Below, in pieces: positions 8,431-30,142 of a DNA stretch of 41,513 nucleotides. This DNA is from Candidatus Iainarchaeum sp. (GTDB lineage Archaea > Iainarchaeota > Iainarchaeia > Iainarchaeales > JAFCCJ01), in assembly GCA_043816965.1 (NCBI GenBank), contig JBDRHK010000031.1, positions 1 to 41,513 of the forward strand, written 5' to 3'. Below the pieces are notes generated by a model, which was not told the DNA's origin, searched no databases, and saw only the letters and a list, made by a program, of their open reading frames with translations. Position numbers and translations under genes: made by a program. Numbering within the stretch: the stretch's first letter is position 1; each line of letters begins with the position of its first letter.

Positions 8431-8682
8431 TTGGTGTTAAATTTGAATTCCCTGTTAAAGCAGACACTTAAAGTTGCCCTTTTCTTGGGGGCCGGGGTTC
8501 TTCTTATTGCGCTCTCAATCCTTAGTTTTATACAGGGACTTTTATGGCAGCTGGAGGCCAACTTTGTTCAGGCATTCCTTGATTACTTTGTCGCCATACT
8601 CTGCATTGCAATAGACTACTGGATTTTTATGAGGGCCAAAGAGGCCTTCAGGATCGCAGAATATTCTGAATTGCATGCTTAA
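8431..8682 (+). CDS. Small 2-TM membrane protein (paralogue of 19097-19327)
   Basis: Two hydrophobic helices. Aligns without gaps to the 19097-19327 product. Confidence 0.7.
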   Translation: MVLNLNSLLKQTLKVALFLGAGVLLIALSILSFIQGLLWQLEANFVQAFLDYFVAILCIAIDYWIFMRAKEAFRIAEYSELHA

Positions 8683-8757
8683 CTTTTAATTAAACCCAAT
8701 TTCTGCTTTAATTAAATATTTAAACCACTTAATGCCTTTATTAGTGGTTGTGATTCT

Positions 8758-11271
8758 ATGAAAGCCCAAACCTCAATTGAGATGCTGATAATTGTTGCAG
8801 TATCTTTAGTGGTTTTAGTAGCTGTTGTTGCATTTGCAGGGGACCAAATTGGAACCATTAACCAGCATACAGATTCTGACAAGGCACAGAAGAGTGTTGA
8901 GGACCTGAGGGATGCGGTTAGGGAGGTTTATGCCGAGGGGATGGGGGCGAAAAAACCTGTTTTCATTGAAATTCCCCATAGCATCGATCCAACTCGCACA
9001 GGGCTTGAGGGGGAGGCGATTGTAATAAATATTGCCGGGAGTGACTTCATTGCAGAAACAGGAATCACGCTTGCGGGAAGCATTCCAACCGAGCCTGGCG
9101 GGCACAATGTCTGGGTAGAGGCAAGGGAGGGATTTGTTTTCATTGGTTTGGGAAAAATCTCGCTTGATACGGAATCGGTTTATGTCACAATGCCGCAAAG
9201 CAGCAATGCAAGTGACAGCATATTGGTGACAAACAATTCAGGTTATGGGGTGGATGTTTTTGTTTCAACAGTTTGGCCGCATTCAGATGTAACACTTAAT
9301 CCAACCCCTGCCAGCTTTTCAATTATTGACGGCGGTTCTGGAACAATTGATTTGGCTTTCAGTTCCTCTGGCGCCGCGATCGGCAATTACCCCGGCACCC
9401 TGGAAATAGATGTTGCAATCCCTGATGGCGATGAAAATTTAAGCATCCCCCTGAATGCTGAGGTTTTGGTCGGAAGCGGCGGTGGTTCTCCACTTGCGCT
9501 TTACGCTGGAACATGGAGCAGCAGCACAGTCGGCGGCGGAAGTGATAGTGCCGGCTTCCAAGCCTGCAACAGCTCTGATTCCGCACTGAGCACAGTTTCA
9601 TTTGCAAATTCAACAGGCGATGCTGGCGATTGGGTCGGCGCCATAAGCACTATTGCATCAATAGCCGCACAGAGCTGTGAGAATTTCAACATAATCTACA
9701 CAGTTCCGGGTGGCACAAGCAGCGGCCTGCATACCGGGACAGTGACCGCCACAGATGCCGCAACAAACGAGGATTCTGTTTCACTGCAAATAACAATTGA
9801 GAGCCTTGCAGCGGCCTTCAACTTTTCATGGTCAGGCGCCTCCTTCAACGGGCCTGGAAACAGATTGCAGAATTGGCTTATTGAAAATACCGACACAGAA
9901 GACCTAACCATCACAAGAATTATTGTCTGGGACTGGAACGAGGCTGATTTGGACGATGCCTTGGTTAATGATGTGCGCATGAATGATGTTGATTTGCTCC
10001 CAGGCGGAACCTACTCGGCCGGGGAATGGATTGACATCACGGATTTCACGATTCCCGCGAGCACAAGCTACCAGAGCAACAACAATTACATAAGATTTTC
10101 AAGCAGGGCCAATGAGGACGGCGAATACTTCCGCATTACATTTGAATTCAGCGATTCCTCCACTTATACTACTGCTGTTTTCGAAACTGTTGATAGCACT
10201 CCGCCGGTTATTCTGCTGGAATTGCCAACAAATGGGCATGATGAGGATACTAACTCAACCATACAATTCGATTACGAGGTAAGTGATGCAACATCCGGGA
10301 TTGCCTCGTGCTCATTGATACTTGATGGTTCAGTAGACCAGACGGATAATTCAATTACTGAAGATACAACTCAATCATTCGTTAAGGATTTGGGCAACGG
10401 CTCTTACACTTGGGATGTTAACTGCACAGATGATGCCGCAGGGAGCAATGAAGGGACAAGTGGGGAGAATAGGGATTTGAATGTAAGCGTCCCCCCAGAC
10501 ACTACCCCGCCAGTTATTATACTCGAATCCCCGGCCGCAGGATATGAGGAGGATTCAAATAGCTCGATACAGTTCGATTATAATGTGACAGATGCCGCAT
10601 CAGGAATTGCTTCATGCTCATTGATACTTGATGGCGCTGTTGACCAGACAAATAATTCAATTACTGAGGGAACAACACAATCATTTGTAAAAACCATGAG
10701 TAATGGCACTTACACTTGGGATGTTAACTGCACAGATGATGCTCCGGCTAGCAATCAGGGAACTAGTGGGGCGGCTAGGGCGCTAGATGTTAACATTGTT
10801 GCCGTGCTCGGCTATATCAGCATTGCTTTTGACAATTTCGATTCCGGTGGATGGGGCGGCGGAACAGGCTGGCTAGGGACATGGTATCATTCAGGCGACT
10901 CCTCTGTAACCACATCAGGAACCGCATACTCCCCAGCATACCATCTTAGGCTGAGAAGGGCAACAGGCTATGCCGACAGGAGCGTTGACCTTTCAGCAGC
11001 CATCACTCCAAGAATAAGGTTCTGGGCCAAGGCGAATAGCTTTGAATCCGGAGAGGAAGCATATCTCTTAGTTAGCGATGATGATTCAAACTGGACTGTT
11101 GTATATGCTTGGGTTAATGGTGATGATGACAATATATATCATTATTACGACATCCCTCTTGACGGAATCCTGCTCTCAAGCACATTTTGGATTGCGTTTG
11201 ATGCAGAAATGAGCAATAACCAGGACCAGTTTTATGTTGACGACCTTAATATAGTCGGGCTCAGCTCTTAG
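8758..11271 (+). CDS. Large pilin-like adhesin: class III signal peptide plus Ig-like repeats
   Basis: MKAQTSIEMLIIVAVSLVVL (class III signal). S/T/G/D-rich beta-strand body with two ~102-aa DxTPPVI...SCSLILDG...YTWDVNCTD repeats. Confidence 0.88.
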   Translation: MKAQTSIEMLIIVAVSLVVLVAVVAFAGDQIGTINQHTDSDKAQKSVEDLRDAVREVYAEGMGAKKPVFIEIPHSIDPTRTGLEGEAIVINIAGSDFIAETGITLAGSIPTEPGGHNVWVEAREGFVFIGLGKISLDTESVYVTMPQSSNASDSILVTNNSGYGVDVFVSTVWPHSDVTLNPTPASFSIIDGGSGTIDLAFSSSGAAIGNYPGTLEIDVAIPDGDENLSIPLNAEVLVGSGGGSPLALYAGTWSSSTVGGGSDSAGFQACNSSDSALSTVSFANSTGDAGDWVGAISTIASIAAQSCENFNIIYTVPGGTSSGLHTGTVTATDAATNEDSVSLQITIESLAAAFNFSWSGASFNGPGNRLQNWLIENTDTEDLTITRIIVWDWNEADLDDALVNDVRMNDVDLLPGGTYSAGEWIDITDFTIPASTSYQSNNNYIRFSSRANEDGEYFRITFEFSDSSTYTTAVFETVDSTPPVILLELPTNGHDEDTNSTIQFDYEVSDATSGIASCSLILDGSVDQTDNSITEDTTQSFVKDLGNGSYTWDVNCTDDAAGSNEGTSGENRDLNVSVPPDTTPPVIILESPAAGYEEDSNSSIQFDYNVTDAASGIASCSLILDGAVDQTNNSITEGTTQSFVKTMSNGTYTWDVNCTDDAPASNQGTSGAARALDVNIVAVLGYISIAFDNFDSGGWGGGTGWLGTWYHSGDSSVTTSGTAYSPAYHLRLRRATGYADRSVDLSAAITPRIRFWAKANSFESGEEAYLLVSDDDSNWTVVYAWVNGDDDNIYHYYDIPLDGILLSSTFWIAFDAEMSNNQDQFYVDDLNIVGLSS
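10192..10800 (+). repeat. Intragenic tandem duplication, two ~306-bp Ig-like units
   Basis: Units start at 10192 and 10498. Long identical DNA blocks such as TACACTTGGGATGTTAACTGCACAGATGATGC occur in both. Confidence 0.85.
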
Positions 11272-11282
11272 GGGTTAAGAAA

Positions 11283-11675
11283 ATGAGTAATATGCAGGGC
11301 CAAATTTCAGTCGAATTCCTGATAATCCTAATCGTCCTTTTCCTGGTCCTTATTTTTTCGGTCTGGGTTTCGGGAGTTAAGGGCAAGGAAGTAAATGATT
11401 ACAAAATTAATGAGTCGGCAAAATTGGCCGCATTCAACACAGCAACAGCAATAAACGGGGCATATCTCGCGGGAGATGGCTTTGAATCTGTTGTTGAAAT
11501 GGATAGCTTTGGGTTTGATTTCAATATTTCAGTAGAGGGAAGTGCGGTTGTTGTTTCCTGGGAAGATAAGTTTGTTGATTATCCGATTTTAACAGACAGG
11601 GTTGTTTTAGGAGACATTGCTTTCGGGGAAATTGCCGCAATCAGGACAATTGATGGGAATGTTTTTTTGGGCTGA
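11283..11675 (+). CDS. Pilin-like protein (class III signal)
   Basis: QGQISVEFLIILIVL motif. Confidence 0.85.
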   Translation: MSNMQGQISVEFLIILIVLFLVLIFSVWVSGVKGKEVNDYKINESAKLAAFNTATAINGAYLAGDGFESVVEMDSFGFDFNISVEGSAVVVSWEDKFVDYPILTDRVVLGDIAFGEIAAIRTIDGNVFLG

Positions 11676-15423: not shown

Positions 15424-16326
15424 ATGAGAGTCAGATTCATGCTCTTCTCCATTGAACAGTCCAAAAAACTAAGCAGGCGCCTGATTTTTATCGGCCGCTC
15501 ACTTTCAAGGCTGTTTCATGGGCTTAAATATGACCTTCCAAAGGCCGGTTTTGATATTGAAGCCGCCCCCTATCTCACCGCCGCCTTTTTCTCAGCTGCG
15601 ATTTATGGAGTTCTCTTCACCTTATTTATTGTTGCCCTGATGTTCTGGAGGTCATTTCTCCCTGGAGGCGTCCCTCTTCTGAATGAAGATTTTATGTTTG
15701 CCTCTTTAGTCGGTTTCCTTTTCTTCTGTATCGCCCTTATCCTTCATGCAATCTATCCGGGAATAATCTCCAAAAATATTGCCTCAAACATAGACCGGAG
15801 TTTGGTTTTTGCTTTGAAAAGCATGAGGATTCAGGTAAGTTCGGGGGTGAGTTTGTTTGATGCCATGGCAAACATTGCGAAATCGAATTATGGCGCAATT
15901 TCCAAAGAGATGGGGCATGTTGTAAAGGAAATTCGCTCCGGGATGTCTGAGGCAGACGCCATCGAGAAACTGGCCCTTAGCAGCAACTCCGACTACTTGA
16001 AAAAGACGAGCTGGCAGCTCCTAACCTCCCTGAGCAGCGGGGCCTCTTTAAGCGGGGCACTAGACTCTGTTGTGGAGATGATTACAAATTTCCAGTCAAG
16101 GTCAATAAAAAATTATGCAGGAGAGCTGAATATGTGGATTCTTCTATATCTTCTCCTCGCCGCCGCACTCCCTTCATTAGGGATTGCATTTTTTGTTGTC
16201 CTTTCCTCAATTGCGGGGGGAGCAATAGACTCCTTTATTTTGATTATGATTGTTGCTTTCGCATTTGTGATGCAGATTATTTTAATTGGGTTTGTAAAGA
16301 CGCGTGTTCCGCAGGTGTTGGCCTAG
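15424..16326 (+). CDS. TadC/T2SS-F family membrane platform protein
   Basis: TM helices and the SSGVSLFDAM...YGAISKE pattern. Follows the ATPase. Confidence 0.88.
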   Translation: MRVRFMLFSIEQSKKLSRRLIFIGRSLSRLFHGLKYDLPKAGFDIEAAPYLTAAFFSAAIYGVLFTLFIVALMFWRSFLPGGVPLLNEDFMFASLVGFLFFCIALILHAIYPGIISKNIASNIDRSLVFALKSMRIQVSSGVSLFDAMANIAKSNYGAISKEMGHVVKEIRSGMSEADAIEKLALSSNSDYLKKTSWQLLTSLSSGASLSGALDSVVEMITNFQSRSIKNYAGELNMWILLYLLLAAALPSLGIAFFVVLSSIAGGAIDSFILIMIVAFAFVMQIILIGFVKTRVPQVLA

Positions 16327-25668: not shown

Positions 25669-25827
25669 GGGCCCGTAGCTCAGTCTGGCAGAGCAGCGGA
25701 CAGATGCCAGCTTAACCAAATTGATGGTTTTGACTGCTTCTGGCTGAACCTTTTAACAAAAGGCCAGACTGATTAACGTCTTTTGAAAGAAAGCCGCGTG
25801 TCGAGGGTTCGAATCCCTTCGGGCTCG
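25669..25827 (+). tRNA. tRNA-Lys(TTT) with two introns (30/31: 25700-25748; 37/38: 25756-25791)
   Basis: Exons 25669-25699, 25749-25755 (CCTTTTA) and 25792-25827 give a 74-nt cloverleaf with anticodon stem GCGGC/GCCGC and G73. Both introns form BHB motifs. TTTAAAA box at 25634. Confidence 0.92.
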
Positions 25828-25911
25828 TTACACGGCTATCTCCGTGTACACGATGGCCTCCCCTTCGGGAGACCTAGCTCGGCCTAACGGCTTCGCCAAT
25901 AGGTGCCAAGC

Positions 25912-27537
25912 ATGGAAAACAAGGAAAACAGGGAAGCCCATTTCTGGGCAGAGAAAATCGCTGATGACGTGATTAATCGCGAGAAATTTCATTTCACTGG
26001 TGGCAAAATCCCGAAAATGAAGAAATGGACAGTTAAATCCTCTTCCTCCCTCTCCGGCGTTCTCCACATAGGGAGATTAAGTGATCTGATAAGGGGGGAG
26101 GCGGTCACAAGGGCGCTTCAGGAAAAAGGATTTCCTGCGGAATTCATTTATGTAACTGAGGACATGGATCCGTTAAGAAAAGTTCCTGAGGGAGTTCCTA
26201 ACGAATTTGAGAAATACATCGGCTTTCCTGTCAGCGACGTTCCCGATCCTGAAGGATGCCACGAGAGCTATGCAAAGCATTTCCTTGAAAAATTCCTGAA
26301 TGTTGTAAATGAGTTCATGCTAATTGAACCTAAGATTTATTCTATGAGGGAAGAATACAAGAAAGGAAATTTCACAGAACAAATAAAAATCCTGATGAAG
26401 CACGCCGACGAAGTGAAGGAAATAATCGACTCCCAGAAGGACACAAAAACAGAATCTTCATGGGTTCCTTTCAAGCCAATCTGCGAAAACTGCGGAAACC
26501 TCCAGACAACAGAAATCACAAAGGTTGAGGGGGACAAGGTCCATTACGTTTGCAAGGATTACAAATTTGAGAAATTCACGGCAAAAGGCTGCAACTATGA
26601 GGGCGCAACTGACCTAAACAAACCAAGCGGGAAACTTGCATGGAAAAGCGAGTGGGCGGCGCAATGGATGAGATGGAATGTCTGCAGTGAGGGGGCAGGA
26701 AAGGAATATGAATCTAAAAATTCAGCTTTCTGGGTCAATGCAGAAATTTGCGAAAAAATCCTGAAATTCCCAAAACCTGAACCAATTTTCTACGAACACT
26801 TATTGATTGACGGCGTAAAGATGTCCGCCTCTGTGGGAAATGTAGTTTACCCTGCTGACTGGCTAAAGGTCTCAAGGCCAGAAACTTTAAAGTATCTATA
26901 TATGAAAAGAATAAACAAGGCAAGAAGTTTCTCCTGGAAGGAAGTCCCGCTCCTGGAACTGGAATTAGACCGCTCCCTGCTGGCAGACGTTTCTGATAAG
27001 GAAGGGGCAAAAATGAGAAAAGTGGCAGACTATTCCTCAGTCAAAGGGAGAAAATTAATTCCCCTGAAAGCAGACTACTCCACAATATCATTCCTGACGC
27101 AGACAATTCCTGATGGTAAAAAAGTGATTGAAAAACTAAAAGATTTGGGGAAAATTTCCGGAAAAGAATCAAAAGAAGAGATGAATTTCATCACTGAAAG
27201 GATTGATAAATCAAGGGAATGGATTCAGAATTTCGCGCCTGAAGAGGCAAGGTTCACAATACTGGAAACTGTTTCTGATGAGGTGAAAAAGAAACTTAAA
27301 GATAATGAAAAAAAAGCACTTTCCCAAATCCCCGGAATTTTAAAGGAAGGAATCAGCGAGGAGGAGTTGGGCAAGAAACTATTTGATATTGCGAATGAAA
27401 ACAAGATCCCCCCTAAAGAATTCTTCAAAGTATCCTATCTGGTTCTCCTAAACCGGGAGCGGGGCCCCAAATTAGCCACTCTAATCCTCGGAATTGGAAT
27501 TGACCGGTCAAAAGCGATTTTTGGGCAGCTGAAATAA
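25912..27537 (+). CDS. lysS: Class I lysyl-tRNA synthetase
   Basis: HFWAEKIA, SGVLHIG (HIGH-like), DMDPLRKVP, PICENCG, KMSAS (KMSKS-like), RGPKL. AGGTG precedes ATG 25912. Confidence 0.96.
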   Translation: MENKENREAHFWAEKIADDVINREKFHFTGGKIPKMKKWTVKSSSSLSGVLHIGRLSDLIRGEAVTRALQEKGFPAEFIYVTEDMDPLRKVPEGVPNEFEKYIGFPVSDVPDPEGCHESYAKHFLEKFLNVVNEFMLIEPKIYSMREEYKKGNFTEQIKILMKHADEVKEIIDSQKDTKTESSWVPFKPICENCGNLQTTEITKVEGDKVHYVCKDYKFEKFTAKGCNYEGATDLNKPSGKLAWKSEWAAQWMRWNVCSEGAGKEYESKNSAFWVNAEICEKILKFPKPEPIFYEHLLIDGVKMSASVGNVVYPADWLKVSRPETLKYLYMKRINKARSFSWKEVPLLELELDRSLLADVSDKEGAKMRKVADYSSVKGRKLIPLKADYSTISFLTQTIPDGKKVIEKLKDLGKISGKESKEEMNFITERIDKSREWIQNFAPEEARFTILETVSDEVKKKLKDNEKKALSQIPGILKEGISEEELGKKLFDIANENKIPPKEFFKVSYLVLLNRERGPKLATLILGIGIDRSKAIFGQLK

Positions 27538-28870
27538 TTTTCTATTTTTTATTGAAAATTTTTGTGCCCGACAAATTTATATATAAGAAACAACATACTG
27601 GTCTGCATGCCTTTTAGCATGAAAAGCCCGGTTCTGGTTCCTGCTTTGGTAATTGTGGTGGTTCTGCTTGTTGCAATTATTTTAGGTTTATTGGTGCTGC
27701 CGTTGATTTTAGGTGATGGCCAACCAGTTCCTGGGGAACAAGAAAAAAAACCAGGGGAGGATTATGTGGCTCCAGAACCCCAAGATTGGGAAAACCCAAA
27801 AGGCACAGGGCTCACTGATGGAGGTGTCCCCATAGACCCAACTACTGGGGAAGTTGGAAGTCCATCTGCTAATCTTTTTTACTCAAAGAATTGCGGTGCA
27901 GGGCAGGCCATCCAGGGATTTGATTTGCAATCTTCCCAAAACCCGACATGCGTTTCAATAGAAAGCGGAAGATCTGGCACGGGGGATGTAATCAGTCCTC
28001 CTCCAGAAACCGGTGGAGACGAGCCAACAGGCGGTTCTGAAACACATTTCTCCAAAATTTGTGGTCCTGGGGAAGCGATTCAGTCGTTCAGCTCAGACCC
28101 CCTAGAAAACCCGACATGTGTTGAGGTTCCCTCTGAGGCAGGAACAACAATAGTTGAAGGCGAAGGCGTAACAATAGTTGACTATTCATGGAATTTAAGT
28201 GCAGATGGCTCAGAATCAGTAATAGATAATGGAGAAACTGTTGAGATTGAAGCAGGGGCGGGAATTTTGGTTTATAAGGAAGGAAATACTGTAAGCATCA
28301 CTGCAACAGAAGCTTTTGCAAAGTCTGTTTCATACATGAATGATTTCAAGCTTGTTGAGGCAAAGAAATTTCCAAACGAAATTAATGTTTCAGATGGACT
28401 CTCAGTAGGCCTGTTAGGAACTGGCGGAATTGACGTTTCCATAGATGAATCAGAAAACAGAGTCATAATCTCAAACACCAAACAATACGAGTATGGCACA
28501 TTCAAGGCAACATGCAATTCATCAGGCGTTGTTAACAACGACCCTTATGCGACCAGCCCTAGTGGTTTAATACATGTTGGGCAGTGCACTTCACAAGTAG
28601 TTTTGGTTTATTGCGAAAACGATGACGCAAAAATAATAAGTTATGGCGGCACCTGTGGAAACGCATATATTAAGGGCATCTACCCATATAGGCGAACAGA
28701 GCCCGCAGATAGCTGGCAGGACTTTGGGGGGATAGATACTGTCGAGCTAGAATGCAGTGCTGCAACTTCCAAAACCGTCTTTATAACCTGTATGAGAGAA
28801 AAGGCCTAATTTTTACTAAATTAAAGAATAATTTAGGTCAAAATCGATTTTTGGGCAGCTGAAATAATTT
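27506..28870 (+). mobile_element. Single-gene insertion bounded by 35-bp direct repeats of the lysS 3' end
   Basis: GGTCAAAAGCGATTTTTGGGCAGCTGAAATAATTT (27506-27540) vs GGTCAAAATCGATTTTTGGGCAGCTGAAATAATTT (28836-28870), one mismatch. The repeat is certain; mobility is inferred. Confidence 0.65.
27607..28809 (+). CDS. Membrane-anchored Cys-rich fibre/adhesin-like surface protein
   Basis: N-terminal TM helix, Pro/Gly/Glu linker, two SKxCGxGxAIQxF...NPTCV repeats, beta-rich middle and Cys-rich C-terminal domain. Confidence 0.75.
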   Translation: MPFSMKSPVLVPALVIVVVLLVAIILGLLVLPLILGDGQPVPGEQEKKPGEDYVAPEPQDWENPKGTGLTDGGVPIDPTTGEVGSPSANLFYSKNCGAGQAIQGFDLQSSQNPTCVSIESGRSGTGDVISPPPETGGDEPTGGSETHFSKICGPGEAIQSFSSDPLENPTCVEVPSEAGTTIVEGEGVTIVDYSWNLSADGSESVIDNGETVEIEAGAGILVYKEGNTVSITATEAFAKSVSYMNDFKLVEAKKFPNEINVSDGLSVGLLGTGGIDVSIDESENRVIISNTKQYEYGTFKATCNSSGVVNNDPYATSPSGLIHVGQCTSQVVLVYCENDDAKIISYGGTCGNAYIKGIYPYRRTEPADSWQDFGGIDTVELECSAATSKTVFITCMREKA

Positions 28871-28928
28871 CATTTCGCACCGGAAACCCACTCCCGAAAT
28901 CAATTAAGAAGGGAATAAACTTATTTTT

Positions 28929-29801
28929 TTGATGCGAAAGTTGTCCCCGCTACACGTAGAACAAATCCGAAATCTTAGGAAAAATGGATTGGCGTACAAA
29001 AAGATTGCCAGAAGATTGCAAATAAGCCCTTCAACAGTCAGCAAATATTCAAGAAACATAATTCTGTCTAGAGAAAAGAAAAAACAACTAGAGGAAAACC
29101 AAAGTAAAAACCGACAAAAATTTGCGTCCAATTATGCTAGAGAGAAGCCAATTAAACTACCAAAGTTTGATGAAAATTTCGCTAATTTATTAGGCCACTT
29201 ATTTTTTGATGGATCAGTTAGTTATCATAATGGAAAATTTGTTTTATCATATACAAACTCATCTAAAAAAGCCATTAATTCCTTTAATAAAAAAATAGAT
29301 TCTTGTTTTGGATTGACGCCTTCAAAGATTTATAAAGTGAAAGGCAAAAACACAGATTGGTTTATGGCACAGACCTATTCAAAAAAAGCGTATTCTTATT
29401 TGAAATCAATTTCATGCTCATTCAGTACGTCTGAAGGAATCGGAATTCCGAAAGAAATAATCAATTCTAATTTTTCAATGAAAGCATCTTTCTTAAGGGC
29501 CTTCTGGGACGATGAAGGAAGCATATCTAACACAAGCGAGCTAACAGGCACATCCAATAGTGAGAAAATGATTGATGATTTAATAACAATCCATAAAGAA
29601 TTTGGAATCATTTGTTCAAAATATAGGCAAGTTAAAGAAATGGGGAAAGATATTTTTCACCTTAGAATTAATGGGAATGAAGATAACTTTTCCAGATTTA
29701 TTGAGAAAATAGGGTTTGAGCATGCAATTATAACAAGAGGCCATCACATAGGAAAGTATAAAAAAGATGTATTAAGGAAATCTATGGGGAGATACCGATA
29801 G
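28929..29801 (+). CDS. Free-standing HTH plus double-motif LAGLIDADG endonuclease-like protein
   Basis: N-terminal HTH (GLAYKKIARRLQISPSTVSKY) and motifs ANLLGHLFFDG and SFLRAFWDDEG. Visibly AT-richer than flanking genes. The stop codon lies inside the tRNA 3' half. Confidence 0.88.
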   Translation: MMRKLSPLHVEQIRNLRKNGLAYKKIARRLQISPSTVSKYSRNIILSREKKKQLEENQSKNRQKFASNYAREKPIKLPKFDENFANLLGHLFFDGSVSYHNGKFVLSYTNSSKKAINSFNKKIDSCFGLTPSKIYKVKGKNTDWFMAQTYSKKAYSYLKSISCSFSTSEGIGIPKEIINSNFSMKASFLRAFWDDEGSISNTSELTGTSNSEKMIDDLITIHKEFGIICSKYRQVKEMGKDIFHLRINGNEDNFSRFIEKIGFEHAIITRGHHIGKYKKDVLRKSMGRYR

Positions 29802-29871
29802 GTCGTGGGTTCGAATCCCTCCGGGCTCGTTCTGGGCCCGTAGCTCAGTCTGGCAGAGCAATCGGCTCTTA
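29794..29871 (+). tRNA. Circularly permuted tRNA-Lys(CTT): 3' half 29794-29829, linker TTCT, 5' half 29834-29871
   Basis: 3' half ACCGATAGGTCGTGGGTTCGAATCCCTCCGGGCTCG precedes 5' half GGGCCCGTAGCTCAGTCTGGCAGAGCAATCGGCTCTTA. Stems ATCGG/CCGAT and GGGCCCG/CGGGCTC pair. The flanks form a BHB at 37/38. Confidence 0.85.
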
Positions 29872-29913
29872 GCCACGCTTTAAAAGACTTAGTAGTAAGA
29901 AATTAATAGTAAT

Positions 29914-30077
29914 GGGAAGGTAGCTCAGTCTGGGAGAGCACATGATGGGAACAAGTCGATTCCTTTAATGGTTTGGTTTTTCTCATGTGAAGCTGAAGAT
30001 GGGCAGCAGTATTTTTACTAATGCTCTGCTCCCAGCAGCTGACCATGGTGTCGCGGGTCCAAATCCCGCTCTTCCCA
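29914..30077 (+). tRNA. tRNA-Phe(GAA) with two introns (30/31: 29945-29991; ~37/38: 29999-30041)
   Basis: Exons 29914-29944, 29992-29998 (GCTGAAG) and 30042-30077 give 74 nt with stems GGGAAGG/TCTTCCC and CATGG/CCATG. Intron 1 has a strict BHB, intron 2 a relaxed motif. TTTAAAA box at 29879. Confidence 0.88.
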
Positions 30078-30142
30078 ATTTTAATTTTTTTATAATTTAG
30101 TTTAAATTAACTTCTTTTCACAATTCGTGGGAGGTTTGTTTC

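Follow-up and report, generated by a model that had tools for sequence, protein, structure and literature searches.

How did a tRNA gene come to lie with its halves in reverse order against the end of a homing endonuclease gene, and does it still yield a tRNA? This question is raised by positions 28,871 to 29,913 of a contig of Candidatus Iainarchaeum sp. (JBDRHK010000031.1, positions 1 to 41,513 of the forward strand; assembly GCA_043816965.1), and the whole 41,513-nt stretch analysed is hereafter called the window. The host genome, G000, is an assembly of 1.34 Mb in 109 contigs that is 86% complete, and the window is its contig C31. At this locus, the 3′ half of tRNA-Lys(CUU) stands before the 5′ half and begins inside the last codons of an endonuclease open reading frame (ORF). 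With moderate confidence, we regard the halves as a genuine and probably functional permuted tRNA-Lys(CUU) gene that arose by rearrangement at an endonuclease-occupied tRNA locus, its function being predicted from the sequence.

The window carries a circularly permuted tRNA-Lys(CUU) gene

The elements of the locus are as follows.

28929–29801, plus strand: free-standing homing endonuclease gene of 290 aa, with a helix-turn-helix (HTH) domain and a double-motif LAGLIDADG domain
29794–29829, plus strand: 3′ half of tRNA-Lys(CUU), positions 38–73 (A38 to G73), recognized from the sequence and the re-ordered halves
29830–29833, plus strand: intervening sequence TTCT, 4 nt, between G73 and G1
29834–29871, plus strand: 5′ half of tRNA-Lys(CUU), positions 1–37 (G1 to A37), ending in the anticodon loop CUCUUA

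The 3′ half reads A38-CCGAU-AGGUC-GUGGG-UUCGAAU-CCCUC-CGGGCUC-G73 and the 5′ half GGGCCCG-UA-GCUC-AGUCUGGCA-GAGC-A-AUCGG-CUCUUA; the latter is trailed by GCCACG and then by the TATA box and gene of tRNA-Phe(GAA). Upon re-ordering and joining of the two halves, ARAGORN called a tRNA-Lys(ctt) of 74 nt with a standard cloverleaf. The halves break exactly between positions 37 and 38, and the strands of the anticodon stem are complementary across them. The locus thus has both the order and the cloverleaf of a circularly permuted tRNA gene. CCA is not encoded, and the G2·U71 pair and the U50·U64 mismatch are both common to the orthologous gene of the same-genus genome G001. A preliminary description, made from the letters alone, had reported this permuted gene together with its coordinates and its overlap with the ORF, and all of these were confirmed: the ORF ends with the stop codon TAG at 29799–29801, so that it overlaps the 3′ half by 8 nt, and its last codons just before that half are the leader strand of the splice signal described below.

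The permuted order was displayed independently by the Rfam YrlA model (RF02553), which describes a permuted tRNA-like module in the order T arm, acceptor, D arm (Rfam) and matched 29797–29863 with 40.5 bits (E 5e-7). This model matches ordinary tandem tRNA junctions too, and membership in YrlA, a bacterial and Ro-associated family, was rejected because the score does not reach the gathering score of 69. The halves were also considered as the junction of an ancestral tandem Lys(UUU)-Lys(CUU) pair; this was rejected because in the genus tRNA-Lys(UUU) precedes lysS and differs in its T arm.

We then looked at how often such an order occurs among 196 genomes of the order Iainarchaeales. A T arm followed within 40 nt by a Lys-type 5′ end was matched in 10 of the 196, and only G000 is permuted, the other nine being ordinary tandem clusters such as Lys(UUU)-Lys(CUU)-Phe. 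When 151 genomes were scanned with the YrlA model, the 11 loci besides G000 among the best 12 (of about 41 matches) were likewise tandem clusters.

Leader and trailer can form a bulge-helix-bulge at the 37/38 junction

The sequences flanking the two halves can be paired by hand into a bulge-helix-bulge (BHB), the signal recognized at archaeal tRNA splice sites, with the following strands.

29785–29793, plus strand: leader strand of the BHB, comprising UGG (H3), GGAG (H2), and AU (bulge; cut after 29793), which are at once the codons M-G-R of the ORF
29872–29875, plus strand: trailer strand of the BHB, comprising G (third bulge nucleotide) and CCA (H3)

In this hand-built structure, H1 is the anticodon stem AUCGG/CCGAU, H2 consists of 4 bp between C32-U35 (CUCU) and GGAG at 29788–29791, and H3 pairs CCA at 29873–75 with UGG at 29785–87. 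The two 3-nt bulges are U36 A37|G and A U|A38. As modeled, the motif corresponds to a canonical hBHBh′ signal at 37/38, as the preliminary description had proposed. A 4-bp H2 together with a 3-bp H3 arose in 208 of 200,000 random leader/trailer pairs drawn from the window (~0.1%).

The endonuclease belongs to a family that resides at tRNA genes

The endonuclease ORF starts with TTG at 28929, with an ATG at 28932. Pfam detected an HTH domain at residues 3–39 (HTH_38, E 4e-7; HTH_38/HTH_7) and LAGLIDADG_3 at residues 184–262 (E 2.6e-13) of the 290-aa protein. Both LAGLIDADG motifs, LLGHLFFDG (D94 G95) and FLRAFWDDEG (D195 E196 G197), are invariant in 10/10 aligned homologues, so that each of the two motifs has its predicted catalytic acidic residue, and a profile built from the homologue alignment matched the endonuclease domains of inteins in the PDB. 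The GC content of the ORF is 32%, compared with 43% for the window. In the homologues the conserved core closes with ...GHxIGKxKKxVL and the tails are variable; the tail in the window, KSMGRYR, is of ordinary length.

Homologues were surveyed in the 196 genomes at E up to 1e-25, and contigs were scanned with the profile of the homologue alignment; a contig scan with the single 290-aa protein gave no match, and the homologues came with the alignment as the query. The named relatives of the ORF belong to Candidatus Iainarchaeum/Diapherotrites metagenome-assembled genomes (MAGs) of the DPANN archaea. A homologue is present in 14 of the 196 genomes, G000 included, and is absent from G001. Twelve of the 13 others have an intact 3′ flank and are informative, the homologue of G108 being cut by a contig end and left out. 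All 12 (39–54% identity) are free-standing and lie 0–153 nt from, or run into, a complete and normally ordered tRNA gene, and 0/12 lie in a tRNA intron. Their partners are the following.

tRNA-Lys(CUU) directly downstream: G129 (9 nt away, with a 37/38 intron), G126 (1 nt), G130 (ORF frameshifted), and G120 (frame running into the D loop)
tRNA-Lys(UUU): G002 (frame running through the 5′ half) and G179 (broken ORF between two copies)
tRNA-Phe(GAA) downstream and tRNA-Lys(CUU) upstream: G111, G042, and G138
tRNA-Met(CAU), tail-to-tail on the opposite strand: G043, G132, and G128

The preliminary description had called for the flanks of homologues to be searched for tRNA sequence, and this search uncovered a strong tie between the family and tRNA genes. 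The closest homologues, those of G129 (54%) and of the metagenome locus L074 (52%), have the order ORF, 9 to 23 nt, tRNA-Lys(CUU), and the tRNA-Lys(CUU) of G129 has a single intron at 37/38, which is the permutation junction. The metagenome loci L074–L081 and L084 have the same contexts, and L083 adds tRNA-Thr(UGU). Short-word blast of both halves on the homologue loci found only the normal 5′-to-3′ order. No tRNA lay in the fetched flanks of the remoter homologues from Woesearchaeota and Aenigmatarchaeota MAGs and from the Nanoarchaeota locus L061. Reading frames run into the adjoining tRNA at seven other loci (G002, G120, G043, G132, G128, L081, and L083); the overlap of stop codon and tRNA, which had been taken as a special trace of an intron, is therefore a habit of the family.

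The gene is free-standing, abuts a conserved gene, and is variably present among genomes. In the window it does not lie between the 5′ and 3′ exons of one host gene, no 5′ half being found upstream of it. Patchy presence, degraded copies in G130 and G179, and low GC are indirect signs that the gene is mobile; site-specific cleavage and homing by the endonuclease are predicted.

One distant homologue does lie in an intron. Locus L063 (QMVD01000060.1, a Nanoarchaeota MAG; 1107–1874) encodes a 205-aa homologue without the HTH (28% identity, E 1e-17) inside a 693-nt intron at 37/38 of tRNA-iMet. A 9-bp helix closes this intron, the joined exons were called tRNA-Met(cat), and neither a group I intron nor any other Rfam family was found in L063 at E up to 0.1.

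tRNA-Lys(CUU) is unpermuted in the sister genome

In G001, the order is intron-less tRNA-Lys(UUU), lysS, 34 nt, unpermuted tRNA-Lys(CUU), a different LAGLIDADG gene, and tRNA-Phe. Comparison of the two orders indicated that, relative to G001, the tRNA-Lys(CUU) of the window now lies on the far side of an endonuclease gene and is permuted. The site that tRNA-Lys(CUU) occupies in G001 is empty in G000, where a remnant of the lysS end runs straight into the promoter region of the ORF. Positions 29801–29829 of the window are identical to the 3′ part of the G001 tRNA-Lys(CUU) at 29/29 positions. The anticodon stem is ATCGG/CCGAT compared with CCTGG/CCAGG in G001, and the three pairs that differ are all compensated across the two halves. 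The G001 gene has two introns around the micro-exon GCUCUUAA; the permuted 5′ half lacks an intron at 30/31, where its G001 orthologue has one. The intron-less tRNA-Lys(UUU) of G001 matches that of the window at 64/64 aligned exon positions.

The LAGLIDADG gene of G001 (C28:1252–1905, minus strand, 205 aa, two-motif) lies between tRNA-Lys(CUU) and tRNA-Phe. It is most similar to the gene on contig C81 of G000 (phmmer E 5e-25), and its 3′ end contains the tRNA-Phe TATA box.

The permuted arrangement is retained where most of the ORF is lost

Contigs of three coded runs, one of which may be the source sample, were compared over 29300–30100. A 180-nt contig of run X1 corresponds to 29772–29950 and differs at two positions, both of them in the spacer ahead of tRNA-Phe. 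In run X2, pieces of the ORF of ~95% identity carry 6 synonymous and 6 non-synonymous changes, and the changes in catalytic-motif codons are all synonymous. In run X3, a 151-nt contig (depth 4) matches 29746–29863 and starts with 33 letters that comprise the motif found upstream of the ORF followed by a diverged 29734–29745. In this allele, therefore, ~840 nt of the ORF are missing; what is kept comprises the final ~65 nt with TATA-like box and leader, followed by the permuted tRNA. The changes in X1 and X3 all lie outside the tRNA halves. The preliminary description had supposed that the endonuclease gene would be hard to delete because it supplies the splice signal; this is contradicted for the body of the gene, most of which is missing in the X3 allele, although its last ~65 nt are present there.

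Predicted promoter, need for the tRNA, and processing machinery

29756–29766, plus strand: TATA-like box GTATAAAAAAG, inside the ORF (codons G-K-Y-K-K-D), at -38 to -28 from A38

At most of 31 other tabulated tRNA genes, TATA-like boxes lie ~-38 to -27 from the mature 5′ end. By its spacing, GTATAAAAAAG is the predicted promoter of the permuted pre-tRNA, and would then be a promoter placed within coding sequence.

No second tRNA-Lys(CUU) was found in the G000 assembly. A T-arm scan of the assembly left five tRNA-like orphans, which are three intron-bearing tRNAs, the permuted gene, and a remnant on C81, and no unaccounted T arm with a Lys-type acceptor. Six continuous CUU anticodon-arm candidates were found in the assembly, 0/6 in a tRNA context. 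AAG makes up 44% of the Lys codons in 285 long ORFs. The ligase RtcB is present in G000 and carries an intein (C42:31153–33972).

Free-standing LAGLIDADG genes end at eight tRNA genes of G000

Upstream of the endonuclease ORF lies a motif that recurs throughout the genome.

28877–28899, plus strand: 23-nt promoter-proximal motif GCACCGGAAACCCACTCCCGAAA

The motif, of the form GCACCGGAAAC.CAC.CCCGAAA, has 31 copies in G000 at up to five mismatches (e.g., C50:9164, C22:19727, C4:13949, and C35:4489), nearly all of them just before a TATA box and start codon. Pfam assigned the 14 ORFs behind the motif that were searched to LAGLIDADG_3 (nine), RadA, NurA, a Ham1-family protein, and a radical-SAM/HhH protein, with one giving no match. 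From this distribution, the motif may be an operator of a recombination/repair regulon common to the endonuclease genes. The motif also fronts large intein-bearing genes.

In the whole of G000, Pfam LAGLIDADG_3 gave 29 matches, corresponding to 12 intein-like loci (frames of 846–1649 aa) and 13 free-standing loci. Eight of these 13 end inside a tRNA gene or at most 27 nt from one, with Gly(CCC), Arg(UCG), Val(GAC), Leu(GAG), Leu(CAG), Thr(GGU), Ile(GAU), and the permuted Lys(CUU) as partners. Three of the other five end 0–20 nt before genes that were named by eye as dnaK-like (C71), metG-like (C5), and thiolase-like (C103). A LAGLIDADG ORF within 1.5 kb of a tRNA was found at 0/30 of the G001 loci fetched; the Lys/Phe locus, the one known case in G001, was looked at apart from these as the positive control.

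Two of the endonuclease loci preserve fragments of tRNA genes. At C81 (8538–9345), the promoter region of the G001 tRNA-Thr(GGU) now precedes a different tRNA-Thr(GGU) allele (8538–8611) of 79% identity, followed by a 213-aa LAGLIDADG gene (8593–9234, minus strand) and then by the last 35 nt of the old tRNA-Thr (~9310–9345). This remnant was identified through the intact G001 orthologue, to which it is identical at 35/35 positions from about position 43. At C66 (165–1795), the locus opens with a promoter and the first ~22 nt of a tRNA-Leu (~203–224). Behind them come small ORFs, a copy of the 23-nt motif, a LAGLIDADG ORF of 356 aa (676–1746), and a complete intron-bearing tRNA-Leu(CAG). Five endonuclease-adjacent orthologue pairs of tRNA genes in G000 and G001 have identities of 0.79–1.00, which overlap the range of the non-adjacent pairs; Thr (0.79) and Gly(CCC) (0.82) have the lowest values among true orthologue pairs, which makes a trend only, on five adjacent pairs, and several Leu and Asp rows had no orthologue among the 30 G001 loci compared.

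Some further observations concern the same genes. A small ORF with ...NPENLTDRELW... recurs upstream of several LAGLIDADG genes (C5, C15, C25, and C86). The tRNA-Arg(UCG) beside a LAGLIDADG gene (C22:31124–31217) is 94 nt long with a 20-nt intron; its G001 counterpart (C41:11706–11779) has 74 nt and no intron, and the exons are 96% identical between the two genomes.

Proposed processing and origin of the permuted gene

The following scheme of transcription, processing, and origin is a prediction built on the anatomy, family contexts, sister arrangement, and population variant observed above. A transcript starting within or upstream of the 3′ end of the ORF would comprise leader, 3′ half, UUCU, 5′ half, and trailer. 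Leader and trailer would pair with the anticodon region to form the BHB, which the splicing endonuclease would cut at 29793|29794 and 29871|29872, and RtcB would ligate A37 to A38 into a circle. RNase P and a 3′ nuclease would then excise UUCU, and CCA would be added, following the scheme given in the excerpted text of the Soma 2014 review (PMC3978253). Cutting at the BHB would strip the ORF of its stop codon if it is co-transcribed with the tRNA. The last ~65 nt of the ORF would now have a triple role as protein tail, promoter-like box, and BHB leader, which fits their retention in the X3 allele.

As for the origin, the permutation would have started from an endonuclease-linked tRNA-Lys(CUU) with a 37/38 intron, like the partner of the G129 homologue, and would have proceeded either through a duplication that then lost its outer parts or through faulty repair of an endonuclease break; both routes fit.

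Several results weigh against a functional permuted gene or against parts of this scheme. As it lies, the gene is called neither by ARAGORN nor by the Rfam tRNA model. The BHB/cloverleaf fold has -29.9 kcal/mol compared with -38.1 for the minimum-energy fold, i.e., 8 kcal/mol worse, and the BHB is absent from the minimum-energy folds of four segments around the gene; thermodynamic prediction alone thus does not favor the BHB. A transcription start ~25 nt past the TATA-like box would give a leader of 4–9 nt, with H3 partly or wholly missing. No RNA run containing 29300–30100 was found. The 86%-complete G000 yielded neither EndA (PF01974; E up to 10) nor RNase P RNA (RF00373); because 5/5 relatives have both, G001 included, where both lie at contig ends, we read their absence as an assembly gap. 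A normal tRNA-Lys(CUU) could lie within the unassembled 14%. The X3 allele stands on one 151-nt contig of depth 4. Dead tRNA fragments do occur beside LAGLIDADG genes, at C81 and C66, and because the C81 remnant is itself 35/35 identical to G001, the 29/29 identity of the 3′ half does not prove selection. Finally, alignment of the leader, the trailer, and the region upstream of the ORF to the introns and spacers of relatives' loci gave nothing significant, the matches being confined to shared coding sequence, the tRNA-Phe TATA box, and the genome-wide motif, so that the route of origin is neither ordered nor dated by these flanks. The likeness of the GCCAC behind the 5′ half to the CGCCAC that follows the L074 stop codon was set aside as too short to use.

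Alternative explanations

Among the alternatives, the one that survives best is that the halves are non-functional debris, with AAG decoded either by a tRNA-Lys(CUU) missing from the assembly or through wobble by tRNA-Lys(UUU). We judge this improbable, yet a serious rival because G000 holds dead tRNA pieces. The remnants at C81 and C66, the incomplete assembly, the missing EndA and RNase P RNA, and a BHB that is not the minimum-energy fold would all suit debris; so would the tandem Lys-Lys-Phe clusters that are ancestral in the Iainarchaeales and make a 3′ end followed by a 5′ end common. Such an account sits poorly, however, with halves that end exactly at 37/38 and share a complementary anticodon stem, with a BHB that random flanks form in only 0.1% of draws, and with a TATA spacing like that of most other tabulated tRNA genes. 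It also has to accommodate an arrangement that is kept where most of the ORF was lost, changes in X1 and X3 that spare the halves, an empty G001-type resident site of tRNA-Lys(CUU), and the 44% share of AAG among Lys codons.

Somewhat less probable still, in our estimate, is the ancestor envisaged in the preliminary description: a tRNA-Lys(CUU) with the endonuclease gene in a BHB intron at 37/38, which was then permuted by tandem duplication minus the outer halves or by a circle re-opened within the intron, leaving the ORF as the former 3′ part of the intron and GCCAC as its start. The ORF does abut position 38 exactly, leader and trailer make a BHB as intron ends do, and the permuted 5′ half, unlike its G001 orthologue, lacks the 30/31 intron. 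L063, although of 28% identity, shows that genes of this kind exist inside a tRNA-iMet intron at 37/38, and for this reason an intron-borne ancestor keeps some standing. The close family, however, speaks otherwise: the ORF lies within a tRNA in none of the 12 informative homologues and at no metagenome locus of at least 40% identity, the closest homologues have the ORF followed by a whole tRNA, and the search for the same ORF in an unpermuted tRNA-Lys intron found none among the close homologues. Upstream of the ORF there is neither a 5′ half nor a remnant of one; the genome-wide promoter motif follows right after the lysS remnant, which is not intron-like. The sister genome likewise departs from this expectation, with its unpermuted, two-intron tRNA-Lys(CUU) on the other side of a different LAGLIDADG gene. 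The idea of an inside-out intron is only partly supported, and an intron-dwelling endonuclease gene was probably not the source of the permutation.

A chimeric join of two tRNA-Lys copies during assembly is very improbable: although the assembly is in 109 contigs and tRNA genes have long identical stretches in common, the junctions are crossed by the separately assembled contigs of X1 (29772–29950) and X3 (29746–29863).

Neighboring genes and other observations in the window

The surroundings of the permuted gene comprise the following features.

25669–25827, plus strand: tRNA-Lys(UUU) with two introns (exons 25669–25699, 25749–25756, and 25793–25827)
25903–27537, plus strand: lysS, class I lysyl-tRNA synthetase gene, named by eye; synteny anchor common to G001
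28836–28870, plus strand: repeat of the final 35 nt of lysS (other copy at 27506–27540; one mismatch)
29877–29888, plus strand: TATA box GCTTTAAAAGAC of tRNA-Phe; GCTTTAAAAG is also present in G001, within the 3′ end of the LAGLIDADG ORF
29914–30077, plus strand: tRNA-Phe(GAA) with two introns and the micro-exon GCUGAAGA (exons 29914–29944, 29992–29999, and 30043–30077)

The first 27 nt of tRNA-Lys(UUU) are identical to those of the permuted 5′ half. tRNA-Phe(GAA) scored 38.1 bits with the Rfam tRNA model and is 88% identical to its G001 orthologue. In both tRNA-Lys(UUU) and tRNA-Phe(GAA), introns at ~30/31 and ~38/39 isolate 8-nt micro-exons of the anticodon loop (CCUUUUAA and GCUGAAGA, respectively), and this double-intron layout is also seen in the G001 tRNA-Lys(CUU) and in several relatives (L074 and G111).

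The two 35-nt direct repeats of lysS bracket an ORF of 415 aa (27562–28809) that is missing at the G001 position; NCBIfam assigned no family to it. From this arrangement, the ORF looks like an insertion with target duplication.

A module of ~70 nt with two hairpins (…GCGAGC…hairpin…GUCGUGU-hairpin) lies directly before the 5′ ends of some tRNAs, and these lack a TATA box. Copies are found at C90:~11225–11284, C70:~1536–1595, C19:~15855–15914, window positions 25830–25900 (reverse), and the ends of C40 and C89. Behind other tRNAs the module occurs in reverse orientation, and it is also found ahead of about 10 copies of the 23-nt motif; for the copies tested with Rfam (C40/C89), only the tRNA and a tRNA-like partial match were found.

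Discussion

The arrangement described here can be set beside several known systems. In intronless homing, free-standing endonuclease genes sit beside a conserved target, as do the seg and mob genes of phage T4. Like these, the endonuclease genes described here are intergenic, abut conserved genes, are patchily distributed, have a seemingly foreign base composition, and have a flanking allele that was seemingly replaced (tRNA-Thr at C81). Unlike them, they encode LAGLIDADG proteins with an N-terminal HTH rather than GIY-YIG or HNH enzymes, reside in an archaeal chromosome, and have tRNA partners in either orientation, and their cleavage and homing are predicted. Archaeal rRNA genes have BHB introns that carry LAGLIDADG ORFs of the I-DmoI type. 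The ORF of the window shares with these and with that of L063 the LAGLIDADG_3 superfamily and a tie to BHB signals; unlike them, it lies upstream of both halves and contributes only its last 9 nt to the BHB.

Permuted tRNA genes are themselves known. In the excerpts consulted of Chan et al. 2011 (PMC3218864) and of the Soma 2014 review (PMC3978253), the archaeal cases are tRNA-iMet and tRNA-Tyr of Thermofilum pendens, with a 59/60 junction, 1 and 7 nt between their halves, and CCA encoded; the review excerpt also describes algal type II permuted genes with a 37/38 junction and gives duplication and loss as the standard model of origin. With the T. pendens and algal genes, so far as these excerpts describe them, the gene of the window shares a 3′ half before the 5′ half on one strand, a short intervening sequence (here 4 nt), a leader-trailer BHB, a single promoter before the 3′ half (here predicted), and an expected circle. 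Unlike the genes of T. pendens, a crenarchaeon, as excerpted, it has the 37/38 junction of the algal type II, no encoded CCA, and a host that is a DPANN (Iainarchaeales-like) archaeon. Its leader, unlike those of either group in the same excerpts, is the coding sequence of a homing endonuclease, and its processing is predicted. The same two sources relay a proposal that split and intron-bearing tRNA genes resist tRNA-targeting integrative elements (Randau and Soll 2008, via PMC3978253 and PMC3218864). As such elements do, in the excerpted accounts, the endonuclease genes use tRNA landing sites, leave partial copies (C81 and C66), and lie beside a disrupted tRNA; unlike them, they have no integrase and no att-type direct repeat, the candidate agent being a homing endonuclease.

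Among the papers listed by limited full-text searches, none paired permuted tRNA with DPANN names, none described an endonuclease ORF in an archaeal tRNA BHB intron, and none gave an archaeal case of a free-standing homing endonuclease beside a tRNA gene. For Asgard tRNA introns, the part consulted of a 2026 preprint (10.64898/2026.10.13.758758) reports no general route of arrival. The unusual part of the present locus is accordingly the tie of a permuted gene, of a kind already known, to a swarm of tRNA-adjacent endonuclease genes.

A wider reading would make free-standing LAGLIDADG endonucleases that recognize tRNA genes a main driver of tRNA gene disruption in these DPANN archaea; this we offer tentatively, thinking it more probably wrong than right. 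Within it, breaks and their repair may replace tRNA alleles, leave half-genes, favor introns around the anticodon loop, and have made the permuted tRNA-Lys(CUU). The permuted allele may persist because the target of the endonuclease is no longer continuous DNA. The 3′ end of the ORF may have been co-opted as tRNA promoter and BHB leader, and tRNA processing may cut the stop codon off the endonuclease mRNA and so throttle its expression. Because the promoter motif is common to the endonuclease genes, radA, and nurA, the recombination machinery on which these endonucleases depend may be induced at the same time as they are.

How tRNA introns and split and permuted tRNA genes arise is an open question, and here a concrete candidate agent is found at the scene. 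The permuted tRNA-Lys(CUU) would extend the known archaeal cases to a second lineage and to the canonical 37/38 junction, and the comparison is a near-contemporary one, with an unpermuted sister genome and a population variant without most of the ORF. With 13 free-standing LAGLIDADG genes, eight of them at tRNAs, and with remnants and a replaced allele, fragmentation of tRNA genes by mobile elements becomes directly testable by cleavage assays. These findings point to homing endonucleases as a cause of fragmented tRNA genes.

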